A stretch of 64,000 nt of DNA from Podarcis vaucheri (lineage: Eukaryota). Under the pieces are notes generated by a model, which was not told the origin of the DNA, ran no database searches, and worked only from the letters and a program-made list of their open reading frames with translations. Made by a program: the position numbers and the translations under genes. Below, piece by piece: positions 1 through 59,837 of this stretch (position 1 is the stretch's first letter; every line of letters starts with the position of its first letter). The DNA lies in NCBI GenBank assembly GCA_965113315.1, contig OZ220373.1. One strand, given 5' to 3'.

Positions 1-1753
1 GAATATAGTTAACCAAATCAATTTAAATGTAAGCTAATTGCATGGAGAAGGTTTCTGTCAAAGTAAAGAACTCTTGAGGAATACTTGATATATTATGCTT
101 GTGGGTGTACACCTTAAAACTCTTACATGCATGTCTGTAAAAGTATGTCTTAAATTGTGCTTTCAAAGAGTTATATAGTGATAAGGGGAAATGTATATAC
201 TAGGAAGCCAGAAATGGCCATAGCTCCTTGCTATATATATTTACAATCGAAACTACAAGTGAACTGCCATGTAGAATTTGTTCCATGGAAATCAATAGGA
301 TGTAAAAGTTTTTAAAATTCCCATTGATCTTATTTTCCTTAGCTGTGTTGAGCACCTTTGCAGGATATAAATTTAGACAGGAAATAACTTTAGTAAGTAA
401 ATAAAGAGGCCCTATTATGAACTGAGACACTCTATTGCGTTTCATCCCAAACAAAGTTAGATCACCAGAAGCTAAAGAACATTCATTTATCCTTAAGCAT
501 AATTGTACTTATGTTCCAGCAATTGTTCTAGAGAGCCTGAGCACCATGACAGTTCAGAGGAATAATGACCTTGAAACAAGATGAGGCCCCTGAAATGGAT
601 TCACTTAGAAGCTTTCACAGTTCTTTGAGCAAAGCAATTCCTAGTCATTCTGGCAAGGACTTATTCTAAATTGTGCTCCTATGGATGGGAGACGCCACAA
701 GAAGAAAATCTAATACACCAAAGCACCTGGACACAATTTTCTATTTACTTTCGAATCTATCTGTATTGGAAGAGGGCCACAGTGAGATTAATGCATTAAC
801 TTTTCATTTTGGAACTTGGTTTTGTTGTCACTCGAGGACCAGGAATTATGTAACACGGGCTGCTTTGATATATTACTAGTGCCCTGGCTGGCTGTTTGTA
901 CAGTAAGAAGGCAGTCATATAAAAATAATCTCCAAACAAATTTACTGTAGCAGTTGCCATATGAAAATAATGCTGGTACTTTGACAAAAAAAAACAAACC
1001 AGAGAATTTTATGTGTTTCATTGAATCTGCAAGGGAATGAAGCTTTTGTGCAAAAAGGAGCTGGGTCAGGCTTTACATTTTTGTGCTGTGACCCTTCCAC
1101 ACAAAAAACTTTGAAAGGGTTGATATTGGCTCCACTAGTTCATTTACTTCTGCTACAAGGCACAATGAAGGATTCTGTTCGAAAGCAACAAAACAAAATC
1201 AAATCAAATCTCATCAAATGCAACCAGGCTCAGCAGCAGACCTAATTTCACCTGGAAAGTTCTGGAAATGCAGTTAGAAAACTCTTGCGAGCCTCAAGTT
1301 TCTTATAGCCTACAGTCTCAATAAGCTGCATAAAGTAGAAGTTACTGACTCGTGACCCAACAGAGAATTCTGTGACTGCAAATGCCGACATGGCAGGTGC
1401 GGTTTTCAAAGTGCTGCAGTATCAGAAGATGCACCTGATAAACCTCGCTATGCTACCCAGTTGTTAAAAGTAGTAAAACACAAACAATTCAAAACCACGT
1501 GTGTGTCTTTCAAAATGGTAATCAAATATAAATTTATGGGGTTTGGGAAGAGAAAGAAGAGGGGAGGGGATGTAGATAAGGGGAGGCTACCATTTCAGGT
1601 GTATGCAAACATCTCAAACACCAGCTAATTCTAGTAAATAAACAAACATATTTGACATTTGAAGTATGTACATAGTTGTAGATAAATTCATAATGTTTTC
1701 AGCTATTGCTTAAAGTGACCTTTGTTGTTATTATAAGTATTGCAGGAACATAC

Positions 1754-1898
1754 CTGATAATTCACAGCCAAGAAGTTCCATTCGCAAAGTGCAATGCCTT
1801 CTACAAACCTGAGGATATAATCGTATGTACTGAGATTTTATTGGTGGTGTGAAAGAATTTGCGTAAGGCGTATTATTATCCACGTTCCCACGGAAAAC
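1754..1898 (-). CDS. EDIL3: EDIL3 coding exon (human exon 8 equivalent), C-terminal part of discoidin domain 1
   Basis: Absent from the ORF track; translated by hand: [48 protein letters not shown](G). 145 nt, acceptor ATAG| (ct at 1899-1900), donor G|GTATGT (ac at 1752-1753); phase 0 in, phase 1 out. Confidence 0.97.
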
Positions 1899-2189
1899 CT
1901 ATGACAAAACACAACAGATTGTAAAAGGCATTTGAATGGCAATATGGGCCAATAAAGTTCATGATTACATACAATTATTTAGTGTCAGCAGAAGGTCTGC
2001 TGTCCTCATTTGATGGATGTGGCAGGAGTAAAACAGAATGCAACTGAAGATGGGTGAATACAGGCAACCTACCATTAAGGAAGCGGGGAATATCCTGCCA
2101 AGTAGTGGTGAGAATTGTACCATTCCTTTGTTTCCCTGGATTTCTAATTGGTGGGACATTATGGATGGAGTTTCATGCATATTTAGATA

Positions 2190-2394
2190 CAGTAGTACCT
2201 CGGGTTAAAAAACTAAATTCATTCTTAACCTGAAACTGTTCTAAACCTGAGGTACCACTTTAGCTAATGGGGCCTCCCGCTGCCGCCGCACTGCCGGAGC
2301 ACAATTTCTGTTCTCATCCTGAAGCAACCCGAGGTACTATTTCTGGGTTAGCGGAGTCTGTAACCTGAAGCATCTGTAACCCGAGGTACCACTG
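2190..2394. mobile_element. Non-autonomous Tc1/mariner (Tigger/pogo-like) MITE
   Basis: 18-bp TIRs CAGTAGTACCTCGGGTTA / TAACCCGAGGTACCACTG (1 mismatch), TA on both flanks, internal repeats of AACC(T/C)GA. Confidence 0.85.
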
Positions 2395-3437
2395 TATCCA
2401 CCTTGGTAAGTTCCACTCAGTAAATAGTTGTGTGCACACATCCATTGGTAAATAGTGGAACTGGAGTAGGGATAATGTGTGGCAGGGAAATAATAGCTCT
2501 TTGAGCAGTAGTAGTTTAGTTTGGATAAGGTCCTTAAGCAGGGCTGGGAATCATTTTAGTATATTAAGGATCTGAAACCTTTACAGGCACAGAGGTAAAC
2601 ATACCTCTGTGGTTCAAACTACACATGACATGAGACATTTGAGAATGGATATCCCGATAAACTTTTTAAATTTTAAAACGTGGGGGAGAAATTTGGATGT
2701 GGGCCATGGTGCAAGGGCAGTACAACCCTTTTCTCCTCCACTGCGGCCCTGATCCAAATTGCTCCTCCATCCCCACAACTGCTATTAAAATATAGAGGAG
2801 AAAACATATCGGCAATATTTGGAGCACCAATAGTGCTCTGCAGTGGAATCTGGATTAGGTATCCTTGCTGCAGGGGTGAAGGACTTGCTCCTTCTCCTTT
2901 CCCCCCTTGTGATGGCCCCAATCCAAATCACTCCACCAAACGTTTTTACGAGAAGAGAAATTGTGTTGAGACATAATTTGTGTGTCTGCCCTTCTATACA
3001 TCTCTTCTTAAGAGTTACGTGGAATGGACTACTTTGCATTTAGGGTTTTTAATTTTTTTAAATTGTGTCTGCAATAGTTTTAGTAGTATGGTATGTCGTG
3101 CTGCTGAAATAATATTGTCCTTTCACGGGTTAACCAATTGCCAACATAACAAAACTAAATGGAGAGCAGACAAGTAATTACTGGTCAGCTAATTAAAATG
3201 AAAACCATTTAAATATAAGAAACAGAATTATTATAGCCTTGCAATGCTATATTTATAAAACAATCAAAGTAGAGGAAAGTCTTACTCAATGCAAAATGTC
3301 GACTTATTCCAGTATTTCCCAGAATAAAATCTATCAAGGAAAAAAGTCTCAATAAACCCACTTTCTGCTATAAGGCAGTAAAATCCCTTCACTAAATTGC
3401 TATTTAAAATGCTTTTATACTGATGACAATGACTTAC

Positions 3438-3593
3438 CATATCTTCAGTTGTGCCTTTCACTTTGTACGTTGCCCATAATTTCCCATCATTACTATATGC
3501 AATTTTGTATGATTTTATATATTCTGGGCTTCCGATTCTCTTGGCACCTTGAGTTATAACACCAGTGATTCTCATCTTCCTCTGCAGGTTTAT
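3438..3593 (-). CDS. EDIL3: EDIL3 coding exon (exon 7 equivalent), discoidin domain 1 middle
   Basis: [52 protein letters not shown]; 156 nt, TTTCAG| acceptor, ATG|GTAAGT donor; phase 0-0. Confidence 0.98.
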
Positions 3594-3799
3594 CTGAAAT
3601 TATAATAATGTGTTATCAGTGACCACCAATGGTGGGATGATTGGTATTATGATGCTTCATTTAGATTTTGGTAAAATGTCTGCTTTGGCTGCATTTCTCT
3701 AATATACTGAACTTCCATCTGTCTGAGGCTTCATTTGGGCTAGAGATTAGCCCTAAAAGAGAGAACACTGTATTCATTTCAGAGGAGATTAGATACTAA

Positions 3800-3925
3800 A
3801 GCGGGGATGGGGAAACTGTGGAACTGCAGATGTTGCTGGAATTCAACTCCCATCAGCCCTAGCCAGCGTGGCCAAGGGCCAGAGATGACGGGAAGACTAG
3901 TTCAGCAACATCTGCGGGGCCACCT
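3800..3925. mobile_element. Decayed hAT-type palindromic MITE
   Basis: CAGATGTTGCTG...CAACTCCCATCAGCCCT...CAGCAACATCTG fold-back, same layout as the intact copy at 9591-9726; ends approximate. Confidence 0.65.
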
Positions 3926-5465
3926 GTACTAAAATATAATCTTTCTTACAATGTTTTTCAGTTGCAAGTAAATAAATGCAGGTATAGGGAATAATATAGA
4001 ATAAAATCTCTTTTACAAGTTGATTTCCAGTCTGGCAATCAGGTTCATGTTGTGTTCACTGGTATCACTCCTGGAATTTGCTGTTTAATCTCATTTCAAG
4101 AAAAAACCCCAAAACAAACAAACATAGTATGCACAAATGCATTATGTCCCCTAGGAGATGAAGGACGGCCAAAGAAACACAGCTCTCTGTACAAATTCTC
4201 AACGCCAAGGATCCCCCAAGTGGTCAATACTGACTCCCTGGGTTCAATGAAACAGTGCGGGGTGGGGGGCAGAATAAAGATCTACGGGTTGAAAAGGGCC
4301 TGAGGCAGGAAAGAAGTTTATGATGTACAGTATAGTGCAAAAAATAACAATCAAGAAGTATGAGCCTCAAAAATGTAGCTCCAGCGTGTCTTCTTATTCT
4401 TATTTATTAAACTTCTGTACCGCCCTTGACCCAAGGATCACATGATGGCTTACAATATAAAAACACAAAAATACACAGCATGATAGAAAGCAAAACAATA
4501 CTTTCCACAATACTTTCCAATGAGGAATTTCTGTATTTAAGAGATATTTAACTTTTTACTAATTTATTAATTGAGGTTATAGAGAGATATTCCATGACTA
4601 CGAGCCTAAGGATTTGGATTGGCGTCGATTACAACTTCATAAGCTCATCAAGCAGCCACTGAAGTGCTTAGGAAACCCTGCTTTGGTGCCGCATTGTGGA
4701 GTTCTCCCATTCAGGGTTCTCCTTAGTCAGCCATGCCTTCCTCCCTGATCACTGCCAAGCTTCAGAGGCCCTGAACAAGATGCCTTCTGGCAAAGCATAA
4801 TTATTCCTAAATCATGACACCCTGACTGCTCTCCCCTCTCTGCTGGCAGTTTCTCCCTTCCCACCCGCCTGCTGTTGCCCTGGACGCTCTGCTTCCTCCA
4901 TTAGAGGAAAGGAACATTAGAAATGCCCCCTTTCTCTCTCTCTCCCCCCCCATTTAAATATTTACAATTTGGGTCAGGCAGTTTGATGAATTGTTCAGAG
5001 AAGCGCCAACCAAACCTACAATCTTCATTGTCTGAGAGTGCCAATGAGCTGCCCACCTAAGCCCTCATCTACTGCCACTGTCTCTGGCAATTTTGGGGGC
5101 CTCATGGTTTGGGGCCCTGAAATTATATCCCAGCCCTAATGGCACCAAATTGGATGCATCATCAGAATACATTCCATTGGGAGGACAACTGTGCCCTTCA
5201 AAGGTGGTATATCCCTCACTTCATAAATAAAACAAATATTCCATTCTATGATCTGTGAGCATGCTCAATACTCATTGGGCTGTCCTGCCAAAAAAATAAA
5301 TAAATGTATGCATGTTTGCAAATCTTTGGGTTTCTCCAACCCTGTTGATATCTCCCTTTTGTGTGTGGATGTTGCTACTTTAACTGCAAAATGATCAATA
5401 GTAAGATCTGAACTTTGGAAATATAGTTATTTTCATGTTATTCACTGAGGAAAATACACTATTTA

Positions 5466-24347: not shown

Positions 24348-24710
24348 ACACTTTCGCTTCAGGGTGATAGCTGGATGCCATGATTTGGCACCCAGCTGGA
24401 TGTCATGACCTAGGGCCAGATGTCAAGACTCATAGTGTCAACACAGCACAGCACACAACTTGGCTCACATTCTCTGTCATATTTCTGAGACCTGGGTGCC
24501 ATAACTCAGAGGTATCATAACTCAGAGCCATACCTCAGAGCTGTAACTCTGAGATGACATAACACTGAAGTTTGCACATCATGTACACAGCTAACCTCAG
24601 CCTGCTGAGTCTGCATAAACACGTTCCCACAGTTACAACCACAACTGCAAGGCCAGTTATGACTAGCCTGGCCTGGCCTAAGCTTGAGATAAGGGAGCGT
24701 CAGGAAGTAA

Positions 24711-25087
24711 AGGTAAAGGACCCCTGGAACGTTAAGTCCAGTCAAAGGCGACTATGGGGTGTGGTGCTCATCTCACTTTCAGGCCAAGGGAGCCGGCATT
24801 CATCCACAGACAGCTTCCCGGGTCATGTGGCCAGCATGACTTAACCACTCCTGGTGCAACAGAACACCATGACAGAAACCAGAGTGCACGGAAATGCCGT
24901 TTACCTTCCTGTCACAGCAGTACTTATTTATCTACTTGCACTGGTATGCTTTTGAACACCTAGGTTGGCAGAAGCTGGGGCAGAGTAACAGAAGCTCACC
25001 CCATCATGTGGATTTGAACCACGACCTTCTGATCAGCAACCCCAAGAGGCTCAGTGGTTTAGACCACAGCACCATCCACATCCCTCT
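24711..25087 (-). mobile_element. Sauria SINE, older subfamily
   Basis: Colinear with the 16641 copy but CpG-depleted; 11-bp TSD TCAGGAAGTAA (24700-24710, 25088-25098). Confidence 0.9.
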
Positions 25088-25480
25088 TCAGGAAGTAACT
25101 GTCCTGTAGCCAATTAGAAGACTACCTGACTTAGGAATGCTTTGTCCACATGCGTTCCTAGCCAATAGTGAAACAGGAAATCATGCGTCTGTGTTTGCTA
25201 CAATTGTATAATTGCATTGTGCATTCTTTGTTCTAGACTTAGTCTTTTGGGAAGTGTCCAACTGTGTTCTGTGGCTCAGAATAAAATATTTTTTACCTTT
25301 CAACCCACTGTCTCTTTATTGGCTTGGGAGGGACAGCGTTTTCAATTTGGTATCATGAGGCACCCCAGTAAAAGGTTCCAGAGGGAGGTGCTTCTGTCCA
25401 GATGCTCAGTTGGGGGCCAATGGGCCACACCACTCCCCAAAATGGCATTGTGTGGACAAGCAGAGTCCCCCAGATCCCGA

Positions 25481-26297
25481 GCGCCCCCCCGTCATGTGGA
25501 ATAACGACTCAAGACAACATGCTATGGGGATTAAATTGGCCACAACTTTATTAAATTTCAAATGTGGGTAGACCTTGGCTCAGGCATTGGGCGTTATCCC
25601 TCACCAGTCCCCAGCCGGGGACCTAGGGAGCATCAGGGTTATCCAGTGTGTGTGGGGGGGATGGGCCGGCTCTGGAGAACATATGTTCAAGCAGAGATAG
25701 CCGCCCCCGTTGCACCACCGCTGCTGCAGGGGAGAGCAATGACAACCTTTTGGCGTACGGTCAAAGCCTCCCTTCAGAAACCCCTTTAATGGGGAACCCT
25801 GGTATTGCCGCTGCAAAGAGGAAGATGGACTAAAGGATTCCGCCCAAGGCCTGATACCGCCAAAGTTGTGACGTTTTGCTAGAGGAAAGGCGAAACCTGC
25901 CAATGCAGGGAAATTCCTTTCCAGCCCTTTAACAGCGACCTTGACATAGCAGTGCCCGCACACCTGTGAAGAAAAGTTAACCTGCAAACCTGTGAAGAAA
26001 GGTTAACCTGCAAAACAAGACATTAACTCAGGGTGGGTAGGGTGGGAGAAGCTCTGGAGCCAAGTGAGGATTCCCAGGTAAGATCCTCCCTCTATTGTGT
26101 GGGCAGGTAGTCCCTCCCCTACCTGGCCTGGTCTCCTTGGCAACGCTCCCCCCAGGTGGGATTGGACAGCTGACTGAGGTAGGCGGAGACCTCCAAGTAT
26201 CCCACCTGAGGGAAGGCGAAGCCAAGCCTATGCTGATGCTCCAGATCCAGGGGCTGCGCGCGTCCACGCAAAGGGCGCCCCCCGTTTTATGTGTGGA
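25481..26297 (-). mobile_element. Solo LTR-like terminal repeat, tentatively Ngaro/DIRS (tyrosine recombinase) retroelement
   Basis: GC-rich island with minus-strand AATAAAGTTGTGGCC; shares several motif blocks with 57135-57878; no TG..CA ends or clean TSD found; 26-bp tandem duplication at 25962-26013. Family name is from recollection. Confidence 0.55.
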
Positions 26298-26695
26298 GCG
26301 GTCATTCCTGAAGGGGTCGCCTCTATTTGATGTACGGCATAGAGTACAGCAGAATCAACACAGAATCAACCCTGCAAAATAATTAAGCAGCCATTGGATT
26401 GGTTGATTCAGGATACATACCCAATGCCAATGCCAAAATCTACTTACATCTGTAATCCATAAGGTTGTGGCCTATTTGAACCCCAGATGTTTGTCCTGTG
26501 TGTTTATTGTATTTTTCCATGGTACAGGCCCTGCCAGCCCCGGGTTTCCCGGCCACAATAAAGCTTGCTCACTTAAATGGCCGCATTGCAGCACTTATAC
26601 TCTATTCAAGTGATTCCCCTATAGCCTTGCACCCGCCTAAACATGCTCCAGAGGTTCCCCAACCTCCCAGGAAAGATTTAGGGAGCAAAGCTGCA

Positions 26696-53059: not shown

Positions 53060-53486
53060 TTATCTTCTAAGTAGGTACCTGTATAAATATAGATGATGTT
53101 GTTGTTTTGCATCCCCTTGGCTTGGTGCCCACTGCTGCAGTAAAACACCCCTAGGCAGATCTGGGCCCCCATAAAGCATCATATTGCACTGTCATTCTTT
53201 CCCCTGTCCAGTCTTGCAAGTCCTTCCTCACTGAGCCTTGATGAACTCATGTCTCTTCTGCAGCCCTGCTACTCTCCCACTCAGGGCACATATCTCATCA
53301 CACACATGCATGCATACACCTATTCATGCCAAAGCTACATAATGACTATGGTCCCTTTTGCTACACTGTATTTGACCCAGTGGTTTTGAAGATCTCATTG
53401 CTCTTTCTACATCTGAACATGTAGCTTATCATAGTCAATTTTGTTTAGATACCTATTTGGACATTTGGAACTGCCTATATTAATGC

Positions 53487-53930
53487 CATGGTTTTCCCAG
53501 TAGTGATGTATGGAAGTGAGAGCTGGACCATAAAGAAGGCTGATCGCCGAAGAATTGATGCTTTTGAATTATGGTGCTGGAGGAGACTCTTGAGAGTCCC
53601 ATGGACTGCAAGAAGATCAAACCTCTCCATTCTGAAGGAAATCAGCCCTGAGCGCTCATTGGAAGGACAGATCGTGAAACTGAGGCTCCAATACTTTGGC
53701 CACCTCATGAGAAGAGAAGACTCACTGGAAAAGACCCTGATGTTGGGAAAGATGGAGGGCACAAGGAGAAGGGGACGACAGAGAATGAGATGGTTGGATG
53801 GTGTTCTTGAAGCTACCAGCATGAGTTTGATCAAACTGCGGGAGGCAGTGGAGGACAGAAGTGCCTGGCGTGCTCTGGTCCATGGGGTCACGAAGAGTCG
53901 GACACGACTAAACGACTAAACAACAACAAC
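53487..53930 (+). mobile_element. Bov-B (RTE) LINE, 5'-truncated 3' end with open frame
   Basis: ORF 53488-53919 MVFPVVMYGSESWTIKKADRRRIDAFELWCWRRLLRVPWTARRSN...VHGVTKSRTRLND is the Bov-B ORF C-terminus; (CAA)n tail; 10-bp TSD ATATTAATGC (53477-53486, 53931-53940). Confidence 0.95.
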
Positions 53931-56258: not shown

Positions 56259-57134
56259 CTCTAATGCTAACTACTTCATTGGAACTCCAACTGTGAACTA
56301 AGTTACATGATAAACTTACTAGCTGCATGTCATCTCTAAACCATTACTGATTTTACTCTCTTTCCCCAATCACATTTTGAATGGTTCATTTCCCGATTCA
56401 GAACATTTGAACCTTTGTCTTTTAACACAGGAATTTCTTGAGGTTGAATTGTAAATGTCATACTACTGTATGAGTACTTTGATAAGTTGGATTAACCTAG
56501 TTCTTCTACTGCTGCACCTGATAATCATGCATGTGAATGTCTCGTCTTGGGTTTAAACCTATGGGCAAAGTGCAATGTCTTCTTCATATTGTGGAGATTC
56601 CCCACTGAATGCACAACACATGTATCTGCTTACTCAACAGAGTGATTAAGTCCCACCACAAACAATGTTATGCCTCATGAACACTGGGTTGTTAAGCTGT
56701 GAAAGGAAAACTGAAGCCAATGGATCACAACCCATGCTCCTAATTTGCTACTTCAGCTACAACTCTTGATCACAATCCCAAATTAATAACATTCCTGTCA
56801 CATCTGCTTCTGTGAAAGAACTAAGCAAACACACAAATTTCTGCCAAACAAAATGAATGAGCTATAATAGGAGCACGGAATTGGATCCGTTAGGAGTATT
56901 GGAACCTGAAGTGGCCAACCCTTCATGGGACACTTTCACAAGTGAGCAGGGCTGCCCACCTGTCAATCATTAATTAATTATTTCATAAAATTTATACAAC
57001 ACTTGATTGCTTTTTTAAAAAACCAACCTTCAAAGTGGTTTACAAAAAGATAAAACAATTACCTGATGCCATGTGATGTCAAGTCATTCAAAACTTCAAG
57101 CCAGGATGCAATGGCTTGCACATTTAGCCCTGAA

Positions 57135-57878
57135 ACCCACCCCATGGATATAAGACACAGTGGAGACAGAATTTAGTTTAAAGGTTAATGGGAAAATTTA
57201 GGCCACAACTTTATTGAATACACAAGTGTGACTGGTATTGGCTTAGGCATTAGTATCTAATGACTATAACTGACTCCTGCCCACCCAGCAGGGAGCCTGC
57301 AAGGGTAAATTACCAGCAGAGGGAGCTCCATCAATGAATATTGACTGGACTGGAGCTCACCCGTGGGGTTCCAGGGGTCCTGGCATGGCCCTGGCCCCTC
57401 CCTGGGCTTCGGACGAGATCCAGACCCCAGATTCCTTTAACGGAATACCCTATCAACATGGAGGGGCAGGTGATGGCCACACCTCCCCGCCCCACATCCC
57501 CTAAACCAATGCCTAACCGCCAAACCTTACAAAGTTGTGACGATTGCTAAGAGGTTGGCAAAAACCAAGTGGCCACTGCCAATCTGCCACACTGGGGAAA
57601 ATTTCTTACCCGGCCCCCATTCCAAAACAGGTGACCAACCAAAGTCCAAAGCAAGGACAGACACAACCTATCTAAAGGTTGGGTGGGTGTTTGGCAGCAT
57701 GAAGCAAGAGGAGGTCCCCACGTCGCACTGCCAATTAAATACCCCCAACCCCCAGCTCTTGCCACGTTGCCAATTGGCTAAAGGCCAGTGGCATGATCGT
57801 GGCACTATCCACTGGAGCGGGGCAAAGTCCCACCTCCAAGCTGGTTGAGGGGAGTCCCAGGGCCACCCACAACATGGA
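57135..57878 (-). mobile_element. Solo LTR-like terminal repeat related to 25481-26297 (tentatively Ngaro/DIRS)
   Basis: Shared blocks GGCCACAACTTTATT, TTGGCT(C/T)AGGCATT, CCGCCAAA and AAAGTTGTGACG at similar spacing; minus-strand TATTTAA and a CCAAT motif upstream. Confidence 0.55.
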
Positions 57879-59837
57879 CCCTCTGTTAGGAGGATCCAAC
57901 TTCCTTTACAGCTACAGCTCGAATTAAAACAGAATTCAAGTCACAGCTGTAAAGGTAGAATTGGGAGCACACTCTATCAAATTTGGTGTCTGTTCTGTCA
58001 CCATGTAGGGAAAGGTGGCTATGCTTTGCCCGAAACAGCAAACCACTTTGAGGGTGTGTTTTTTAAAATCAAGCTGTATATAAAGTTTATGAAATAAATA
58101 ATCTATATATAGTGATAATGTAAAAGGATTAGACGGGAGAACTTTAATTGGGTAGGTAACATTATCTGTGATTATCTCGCAGGCTTTTGAACAAGCACCC
58201 TGAGGACATATGTTAGGTAAAAGATTAGTGCATCTTTTTTTACAATGGTTTCTGGGTAGTTTTATGTAGTTTTATTCTGTAAGTTTGCTTCATTGTTTTA
58301 AAAGCATCTTTAAAATAAAAAATGCTTGTATTGTATTATAAATTTTTCAATGGACTATAAACCGAATCAAGCACAAGATTCAGTAGAACAAACAAACAAA
58401 TATCTTTCACTACATAAAAATATGAGTTTTATTTAATTCCACATCACAGCCATATCAGAATAGCTACTATTGACTTCTAGAATATCTGGACTTGAGTTGC
58501 TTGTCTCTGTCAGTAATTTTGAGAGGCAGCCTGTTCAGTTTCCTAAATGTAAGTCCCAATATGTCTTCAGGGAAACAATCTACACCTCAGTTACATGTGA
58601 CATTGAGAAAAGTGGGTAACTAACCCCTGCTATGCTTATGACTTCTCATCTAACACTCTCATTTACTGAACATTTATTTCATTTATTTCTTTCTCCCTCA
58701 ACTACATTTTGCAAAATAACACTTTTAGGATATGGACAGAAATCACAGAATCAGCTACGCAGACAATCCAATTACCTGATTCCCTTACAGGGACAGGCAA
58801 ATCCTTCTGGCTGAAGCCAGAGAGCAGATTGCTTCGGACATCAGAGAGTTTAACAGTCATTTCTCTCCCAAGATAGAGGATTAGTTGTAAGAAGGGAACA
58901 CAGTGACCATAATGTAGGAGGAAACTCACTTGGATGGGAGTGGACATCCAATCAGTGACAGAAGAGACAGAGCTTAATAACTAGAAGCACAAGGGAAAGA
59001 AATCCATTTAGTTCTATTTTAACATTTCCCCTTGCACTTTGAGATACTTAATTCCATTTGCTTCCTATCTTTCCATTTCAGCACCTCATTTGTCACTGAA
59101 AACCTAGAGCAATGCCTAGTGGTTCATTGCAACTAAGCAGTGGTATACACACAAATAATCACAAAACTATATCACAGAAAAGTTTAGGGAATGCTGGTGG
59201 GGCCTCTGGCACTACACCTTATGTTGGACTCCAACTTCAGGCCCAACTATCTTAGCCAATGGCCAAGAGTGTGAAGGAATTGGTGTCCAAAAACTTCTGG
59301 TGGACCTGAGGTCTCTCTCCCATCTCTGGTTTTGGGCTCTCTCTCAAGCTCCTACTAAAATTAATTGGAAACTTTTTAGAGCATTTGAGTTCTTTGTAAT
59401 CTTACCGGAGTAAAATGCAACCCTGTAAAGTGTTCCTCATACATGAAGCTGTCTTATACAGAGTCAGATAATTGGTACCAGTGTTCTAACTGGCAATGGC
59501 TCTCCATGACCTCAGAAAAACATACTTTAAAGAGAAAAGTTTTAAAACAGCAGTGCCCATGGCATCTTTTGTTTGACCCACTAGACAAAGACACTAACCA
59601 ACTATCAGCATTCTCTCTATCAAGATATTTTGTCTCTTAACAACAACAGGGTGACCACCATAAACTGGGCTAGTCTTCAAATCTTGAGGAAAGTAAGAGC
59701 AGCTAATTTCAAGTCACAAAGCTCAGCCACAATTTTTCTTCAATAAATACAGCTGGATCACAAATATGATTGTTTTAGGGAGAAGGGCTTTAGATGCTGT
59801 TAGCATGTGTTTTTCATTGCTTGGAAAAATGCAGGCC

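Follow-up and report, generated by a model that had tools for sequence, protein, structure and literature searches.

Conserved long-range RNA pairing predicted beside an ENE-like hairpin at the 3' end of Ngaro retrotransposon units in Podarcis vaucheri

The window, by which is meant the whole 64,000-nucleotide stretch of the Podarcis vaucheri genome analysed here (contig OZ220373.1), carries on its minus strand two dispersed repeats, near 25 and 57 kb (Table 1), which an earlier sequence-only reading had taken for LTR-like elements. That label proved wrong. Judged by the layout and coding content of their relatives, both are solo units of Ngaro tyrosine-recombinase retrotransposons (order DIRS) with the order A-spacer-B; the Ngaro layout and solo A-to-B units have been described before (PMC9210276; PMC8547959). 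The 25-kb unit represents family A, an 860-bp repeat with 1690 candidate places in the genome. Forty candidates were scored and 30 fetched, and 29 other copies share identical ends with it; AA stood at either end of all 27 copies scored, with no longer duplication. The 57-kb unit represents a second family, B. Both units start with AA and end with CAA.

The pattern in which the end of a family A unit is joined through AA to its start gave 12 matches against 0 for a control pattern, 7 of the 12 being near-identical neighbours on one contig, and the loci so identified are A1-ORFs-B1-A2-spacer-B2 elements, several of them broken. A1 and A2 are 99.6–100% identical over 268 nt in these parents and B1 and B2 99–99.8% over about 410 nt, so that the family A solo unit is recognisable as their A2-spacer-B2 portion. 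The same split direct repeats, A1-[ORFs]-B1-A2-B2, were present in 25 of 60 diverged loci, which had been fetched from 150 scored matches of a hydrolase search and hand-picked for variety at 40–49% identity. Full-length parents, which the sequence-only reading had proposed to look for, were thus found for family A, of the tyrosine recombinase type and with relatives bearing a reverse transcriptase; for family B the junction pattern gave 0 matches and, because no full-length parent was found, its internal borders are placed by homology. The reverse transcriptase was recognised in two relatives (RVT_1, E 4e-14 in L137 and 2e-13 in L158), to which a family A parent is 64–72% identical in translated pieces, while family A fragments alone gave no Pfam reverse transcriptase match. 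Scores below the curated cut-off were obtained for the tyrosine recombinase (Phage_integrase, E 1e-5 and 3e-4) and, below cut-off and in one of two family A ORFs, for an SGNH hydrolase (Lipase_GDSL_2, E 1.8e-6), of which L137 gave no Pfam match. A first ORF of 512 aa and a reverse transcriptase ORF of 628 aa are present, with no Pfam match for a Gag-like or an RNase H domain. A TATA-like box lies about 55 nt before the end of A in several other clusters and is not clear in family A.

Other identities were rejected. A solo LTR of an LTR retrotransposon or endogenous retrovirus is contradicted by the lack of a 4–6 bp target-site duplication and of two complete LTRs in a parent, and a DIRS-like element by a two-strand self-comparison that gave direct repeats only, without inverted terminal repeats or an ICR. 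The objection raised against the sequence-only reading, namely that its complementary blocks might be terminal inverted repeats of a nested DNA transposon (MITE), also falls, since the blocks are internal, 92 and 434 nt inside a unit of fixed length, one arm is missing before B1, and there is no target-site duplication. Permuted elements with B before A1 were seen in 0 of 27. Rfam gave 0 matches in the window and 4 weak ones below the gathering score (E 0.35–4.9).

Several neighbouring features deserve mention in their own right. Just past the family A unit and in the opposite orientation, a third Ngaro B repeat is represented by its 3' part in decayed form (26421–26508, plus strand), with a hexamer-like motif at 26458–26472. 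By eye, an LTR-like stretch runs over about 24500–25360 on the plus strand. It contains tandem repeats of 13 bp, shows AATAAA near 25280 and, near 25348, a motif that begins with TGG, and is interrupted by a SINE-like repeat at 24710–25090. An open frame of 156 aa (53449–53919, plus strand) resembles the end of an RTE-type LINE. Long ORFs of up to 1198 aa from another retroelement lie in or beside family A parents (L076, 5189–7938; L081, oriented 3–4564), and L141 (5932–7496) is an internally deleted Ngaro, retaining A, the end of the recombinase, the hydrolase and B1, about 190 nt behind a tRNA-His gene in a tRNA gene cluster.

Table 1. Positions of the two solo units and of their predicted parts in the window.
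Feature	Position	Strand	Remarks
Solo A-spacer-B unit, Ngaro retrotransposon (family A)	25447..26306	-	AA at both ends, without target-site duplication
Repeat A (putative promoter half)	26045..26306	-	A1/A2 identity in parents
G3-N-G3-N2-G3-N-G3 G-quadruplex motif	26031..26046	+	First-cDNA strand, A/spacer border
Unique spacer between A2 and B2	25863..26044	-	No match to A1 or B1 of parents (solo positions 263-444)
ENE-like hairpin	25884..25922	-	7-bp lower stem, U-rich internal loop, 5-bp upper stem; 11 nt before arm
Outer helix, 5' arm, last bases of spacer	25862..25872	-	Before B2 in 25/25 and before B1 in 0/25 diverged elements; same in family A parents
Repeat B	25447..25862	-	B1/B2 homology begins at 25862
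Inner helix, 5' strand	25841..25854	-	Closes B domain of about 270 nt; 98.6% of cells paired
Inner helix, 3' strand	25580..25593	-	Minimum-energy fold and alignment
AATAAA poly(A) hexamer (putative)	25547..25552	-	Conserved across clusters
Outer helix, 3' arm	25539..25549	-	Overlaps invariant 9-mer 25538-25546
Predicted cleavage site (CCA)	25525..25527	-	About 21 nt past hexamer; by position only
Second solo unit (family B)	57116..57902	-	Repeat of about 790 bp, 4972 candidates
Family B ENE-like hairpin	57553-57610	-	
Family B outer helix, arm / partner	57531-57541 / 57202-57212	-	
Family B inner helix	57508-57516 / 57243-57251	-	
Family B hexamer	57210-57215	-	

Two nested helices are predicted in the minus-strand RNA, the inner one within repeat B and the outer one joining the end of B to the end of the spacer. 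The outer pairing proposed by the sequence-only reading (25541–25549 with 25862–25870) is present and extends to 11 nt with one G-U pair, the inner pairing was confirmed with 13 of 14 positions matched, and the nesting is repeated in the family B unit. The enclosed sequence had been called unalignable by eye, and the two elements indeed share little when compared pairwise, but once intermediate families are added it aligns, with shared helices. Minimum-energy folds of the minus strand contain both helices, at z = -3.94 for the 25-kb and -4.45 for the 57-kb element (0 of 100 shuffles as good). These z-scores do not pick a strand, as the antisense folds as far below its shuffles as the sense; G-U outnumbers A-C in the alignment cells (64:17 and 21:1), which favours the sense strand. 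Over 13 aligned spacer-B2 domains pairing in the three named helices reached 98.5%, and in 7 of 25 pairs both partners had changed; none of 500 shuffles did as well and slid controls were 25–47% paired, controls that ignore relatedness and bear on structures chosen from the same sequences, the 94 units in the collection amounting to 8 clusters. Further shared helices and a conserved TTAAAGG hairpin loop were seen in the B domain (about 25600–25840, minus strand), and two unpaired G's at the start of B are retained across clusters.

The two helices differ in how they vary. Double changes were found in 4 of 11 inner-helix pairs (13 sequences), including the compensatory change from C-G to U-A that had been noticed between the two elements and is real (alignment columns 123 and 464). 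The outer helix contributes none of the covariation: 8 of its 9 pairs never vary in the 13 sequences, one of them being U-G, and the unpaired neighbours of the arms are conserved too. The covariation expected by the sequence-only reading is therefore borne out for the inner helix and not for the outer, and since the latter does not covary, what argues for its pairing is position and complementarity. Among 3198 background 40-nt windows, 21 held 8 bp of complementarity to the motif when up to one G-U was allowed, and the outer helix spans 299–345 nt across the 8 clusters. A family in which the outer helix covaries was sought among 67 arm variants; 30 were fetched, 20 had a scorable partner and 1 had a matching change, and with so few the variants are read as decay. 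It is conceivable that both arms are kept as primary-sequence sites, for protein binding on RNA, cDNA or DNA or for packaging or export, with pairing as a secondary matter. The invariance of the pairs, the conserved neighbours and the equally stable antisense folds would fit this, but independent sites would rarely be complementary, as the background windows indicate, and be stacked on a covarying helix as well, and we regard it as quite improbable.

Folded locally, the outer helix had a probability of 0.97–1.00 in 5 of 6 elements and of 0.78 and 0.97 in the window copies, and it drops to 0.09 in one family A parent with a point change. In folds of the whole 3' end the pairing of the arm with B2 ranged from 0.00 to 0.64, and B1 was the preferred partner in 3 of 6 elements.

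Upstream of the arm the spacer carries a predicted hairpin that resembles an ENE. A descriptor of our own making, loose enough to be satisfied by 4.8% of background windows (59 of 1218), matched 85 of 94 spacer-B2 units in 8 of 8 clusters, 0 antisense and 2 of 85 B1 flanks. Double changes were seen in 5 of 7 lower-stem pairs among 18 sequences, and the two innermost of these pairs are G-C in 17 and 16 of the 18. The loop is short: the window copy of family A has only 3+3 U, and family A generally 3–4 U per side. At its other end the spacer opens with four runs of C, the counterpart of a G-quadruplex motif on the first-cDNA strand. The motif begins at the end of A2 in 14 of 14 chosen elements, a choice that leaves out the one cluster among 7 that carries only a two-G variant, and was present in 63 of 95 units against 5 of 752 background windows.

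The putative poly(A) hexamer is followed by CA at 20–23 nt and then by a tract containing GU or U, a geometry kept in 7 sequences from 7 clusters. Assembled contigs from 4 runs, consulted for RNA evidence, yielded no molecule ends and do not inform on level or strand. A single genomic match in which 12 A's stand 20 nt past the hexamer was rejected as a retrocopy, since B sequence carries on beyond the A's and the copy has a family mate. The sequence-only reading had stressed that the outer helix takes in the last three A's of AAUAAA. This is so in both window families, but elsewhere the extra pairing into the hexamer amounts to 0–6 pairs across 8 clusters (77 of 94 units scored), and hexamer occlusion is not the conserved feature. 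Its broader proposal of a conserved cis-acting structure is supported, with the sense strand as its carrier and the 3' end as its place. The invariant 9-mer that follows AATAAA is identical to positions 31–39 of the tRNA-His genes of this genome, i.e., to the anticodon loop and its closing pair. The true partner of the arm, which is complementary over 8 bp, might then be tRNA-His or a fragment of it, the B motif being an internal decoy that is exchanged for the tRNA, and an outside partner would explain why the arm is invariant where other helices covary. The match is however post hoc, with a rough chance of about 0.01 for any 9-mer in some 50 tRNAs, it is limited to 8 bp with no further complementarity by eye, and if the tRNA were the primer it would leave spacer bases uncopied (see below); this reading is very improbable.

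The sequence-only reading overlooked two points: the outer helix belongs to the second B copy alone, and it adjoins the ENE-like loop. Judging by the sequences compared, the arm and the predicted loop stand before B2, not before B1: among the 25 diverged loci with two B copies the arm never preceded B1 (Table 1), and no 8-bp arm complement was found in 83 B1 flanks even with up to two G-U pairs allowed. The same poly(A) signal is present in B1 and in B2, and in either copy the inner helices close B into a predicted domain. B1 has its own arrangement. The final codons of the hydrolase ORF, stop included, pair with the stretch that separates the inner helix from the hexamer, with double changes in 6 of 12 and 2 of 9 pairs (19 sequences), and a hairpin precedes B. 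The whole B1 structure is 90% paired, with 18 of 43 pairs doubly changed and 0 of 500 shuffles as good (19 sequences), the shuffles again ignoring relatedness and the structure having been chosen from the sequences on which it was scored. A second B1 pairing suggested by consensus folding, between the ORF end and the post-hexamer motif, was rejected as it needs at least 3 G-U pairs and single-sequence folds prefer another register. As the 5' neighbour of B differs between the copies, B1 pairs with the end of the last ORF and B2 with the spacer arm, and repeat B has two mutually exclusive 5' partners.

It was also observed that 35 of the 60 diverged elements (L115–L174) have no second B copy, most of them stopping at B1 and many precisely at its end, and that duplicated family A loci with and without A2-spacer-B2 have a common flank, which points to recombination between B1 and B2. 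Both B copies of L174 (oriented 7400 and 8216) are 100% identical and carry AAGAAA in place of AATAAA, a change that, being in both, has passed through the copying cycle.

Upstream of the hexamer B1 and B2 differ at 0–7 positions within a copy, mostly 0–2, against medians of 17, 21 and 43 between copies, so that one template appears to supply both. This homogenisation is among the points that speak for a role in reverse transcription. The outer helix might mark or prime it at the spacer/B2 border, the RNA 3' end held in the nested helices starting the cDNA and B2 being rebuilt from B1. In agreement with this the arm adjoins the start of B homology in every cluster, position 25862 being both the first base of B1/B2 identity and the last base of the arm, whose other bases belong to the unique spacer. 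Of 5 distant loci in metagenome assemblies, all too short to reach B2, 3 show a hairpin and then TGGCGG after the hydrolase, at the start of B1 (no relatives were found in viral contigs). The primer of DIRS elements, DIRS-1 included, is moreover described as unknown, with a 3' hairpin cited as a suggestion in the available text (PMC7192593). On the other hand, with a primer seated on the arm, the family-specific bases that separate arm and B would not be copied; these bases are inherited, and for that reason simple self-priming on the arm is rejected. The invariant U-G pair implies that the arm is not copied from its partner, and homogenisation might equally follow from a second-strand start in B1. 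A marking or priming role at the spacer/B2 border seems rather unlikely.

A role in 3'-end biology is the best reading of the structure. The RNA of a full-length element would start late in A1 and would have to pass the B1 signal, and replication would need RNA running through B1, because only such RNA holds the B|A junction from which the ends are restored. One way to favour B2 would be a poly(A)-site switch, in which the outer helix frees the motif after AAUAAA from a local hairpin that hides the cleavage site, B2 being used and B1 shut. In 20 of 21 elements the CCA site is predicted to be costlier to open in B1 than in spacer-B2 (mean 3.4 vs 1.4 kcal/mol), in 4 of 6 folds the B1 helix extends into the beginning of the hexamer, and in HIV-1 a hairpin is described as repressing the first of two identical signals (PMC2645353). 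The hexamer itself is, however, harder to open in B1 in only 7 of 21, the joint opening costs lie about 1 kcal/mol apart, with almost no difference in 2 of 6 clusters, and the local cleavage-site hairpin is weak, being better than shuffles at p < 0.05 in 0 of 17 sequences. Such a switch is unlikely; it is compatible with the ENE-based reading that follows and does not exclude it.

We lean, at slightly better than even chances, towards the reading that the outer helix docks the poly(A) tail of B2 beside the ENE-like hairpin and thereby favours read-through RNA. The inner helices would fold B into a domain whose base sets its 5' neighbour opposite the poly(A) signal. With about 300 nt of B folded out, the start of the tail would lie about 12 nt beyond the outer helix and the ENE 11 nt before it on the other strand, and a U-A-U triple helix formed with the tail would make RNA that ends in B2 more stable than RNA that ends in B1. 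The protection would extend to short transcripts that start in A2 or come from solo units. Tail docking of this kind is not strictly needed, because an ENE can act without a docking helix, and against it stands the invariance of both arms, which the model leaves without explanation. It is tempting to go further and to speculate that the spacer is a replication hub. At one end the G-quadruplex of the first cDNA strand would halt synthesis of the second strand exactly where A ends; at the other the outer helix would act as a switch, first docking the tail on the ENE and later being opened by tRNA-His, which would provide the primer or bring it into place. This combination is a long shot. For Ngaro elements of birds a preprint describes, in its available text, enrichment of Z-DNA and not of G-quadruplexes (10.1101/2025.10.17.683159).

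The structure bears on the ways in which tyrosine-recombinase retrotransposons terminate, protect and prime their RNA. Two mutually exclusive partners of one repeat offer a concrete and mutable answer to how the second of two identical poly(A) signals may be favoured, and the defined parts, i.e., arm, ENE-like loop, G-quadruplex tract and B1 helix, render the replication model testable. The findings would place an ENE-like element in a vertebrate Ngaro family, thousands of whose dispersed solo copies could end and stabilise host transcripts. In a literature search, incomplete for key papers, neither this structure nor an ENE nor poly(A)-site control was seen described for Ngaro elements.

Among known elements, DIRS-53_XT of Xenopus has the same A1-ORFs-B1A2B2 split direct repeats and ORFs for reverse transcriptase, tyrosine recombinase and SGNH hydrolase, with a B of 152 bp (PMC9210276) against 360–420 nt plus a unique spacer of about 180 nt here. 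Solo AB repeats of Cafeteria Ngaro elements (PMC8547959) and SIRE of Trypanosoma VIPER (PMC6681497) are likewise dispersed A2-to-B2 units of a split-repeat element, both from other hosts and SIRE with a spacer of about 30 bp. The available text of these papers mentions no RNA structure for DIRS-53_XT, Cafeteria Ngaro or SIRE, nor poly(A) control for DIRS-53_XT (PMC9210276; PMC8547959; PMC6681497). ENEs, as in KSHV PAN RNA and in Evade/Copia93, are described as having likewise a U-rich internal loop between helices with adjacent G-C pairs, and the placement is alike as well, upstream of the poly(A) site within a spacer that precedes the terminal repeat (PMC12501189; PMC7583470). The ENE in the Evade spacer is reported to stabilise the RNA and to raise mobility (PMC12501189), and for vertebrate mobile DNA, ENE-type elements of stickleback retroviruses are mentioned (PMC7583470). 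Unlike known ENEs, the loop described here is single, short and predicted, it comes with a 300-nt long-range helix by the poly(A) signal, and only one of the two identical signals has it.

Context and RNA structure also distinguish between two identical poly(A) signals in the case of the HTLV-1 Rex element and of hepadnavirus first-pass read-through. The polyA hairpin of HIV-1, as described, likewise tells such signals apart by context and RNA structure (PMC2645353). The present arrangement differs from all three in that more than 6 kb separate the first signal from the promoter, the repeat pairs with a strand that is not its own, and hexamer occlusion is not conserved. The element thus belongs to a known superfamily, and its RNA module is a variant of known ENEs and of retroviral 3'-end devices.
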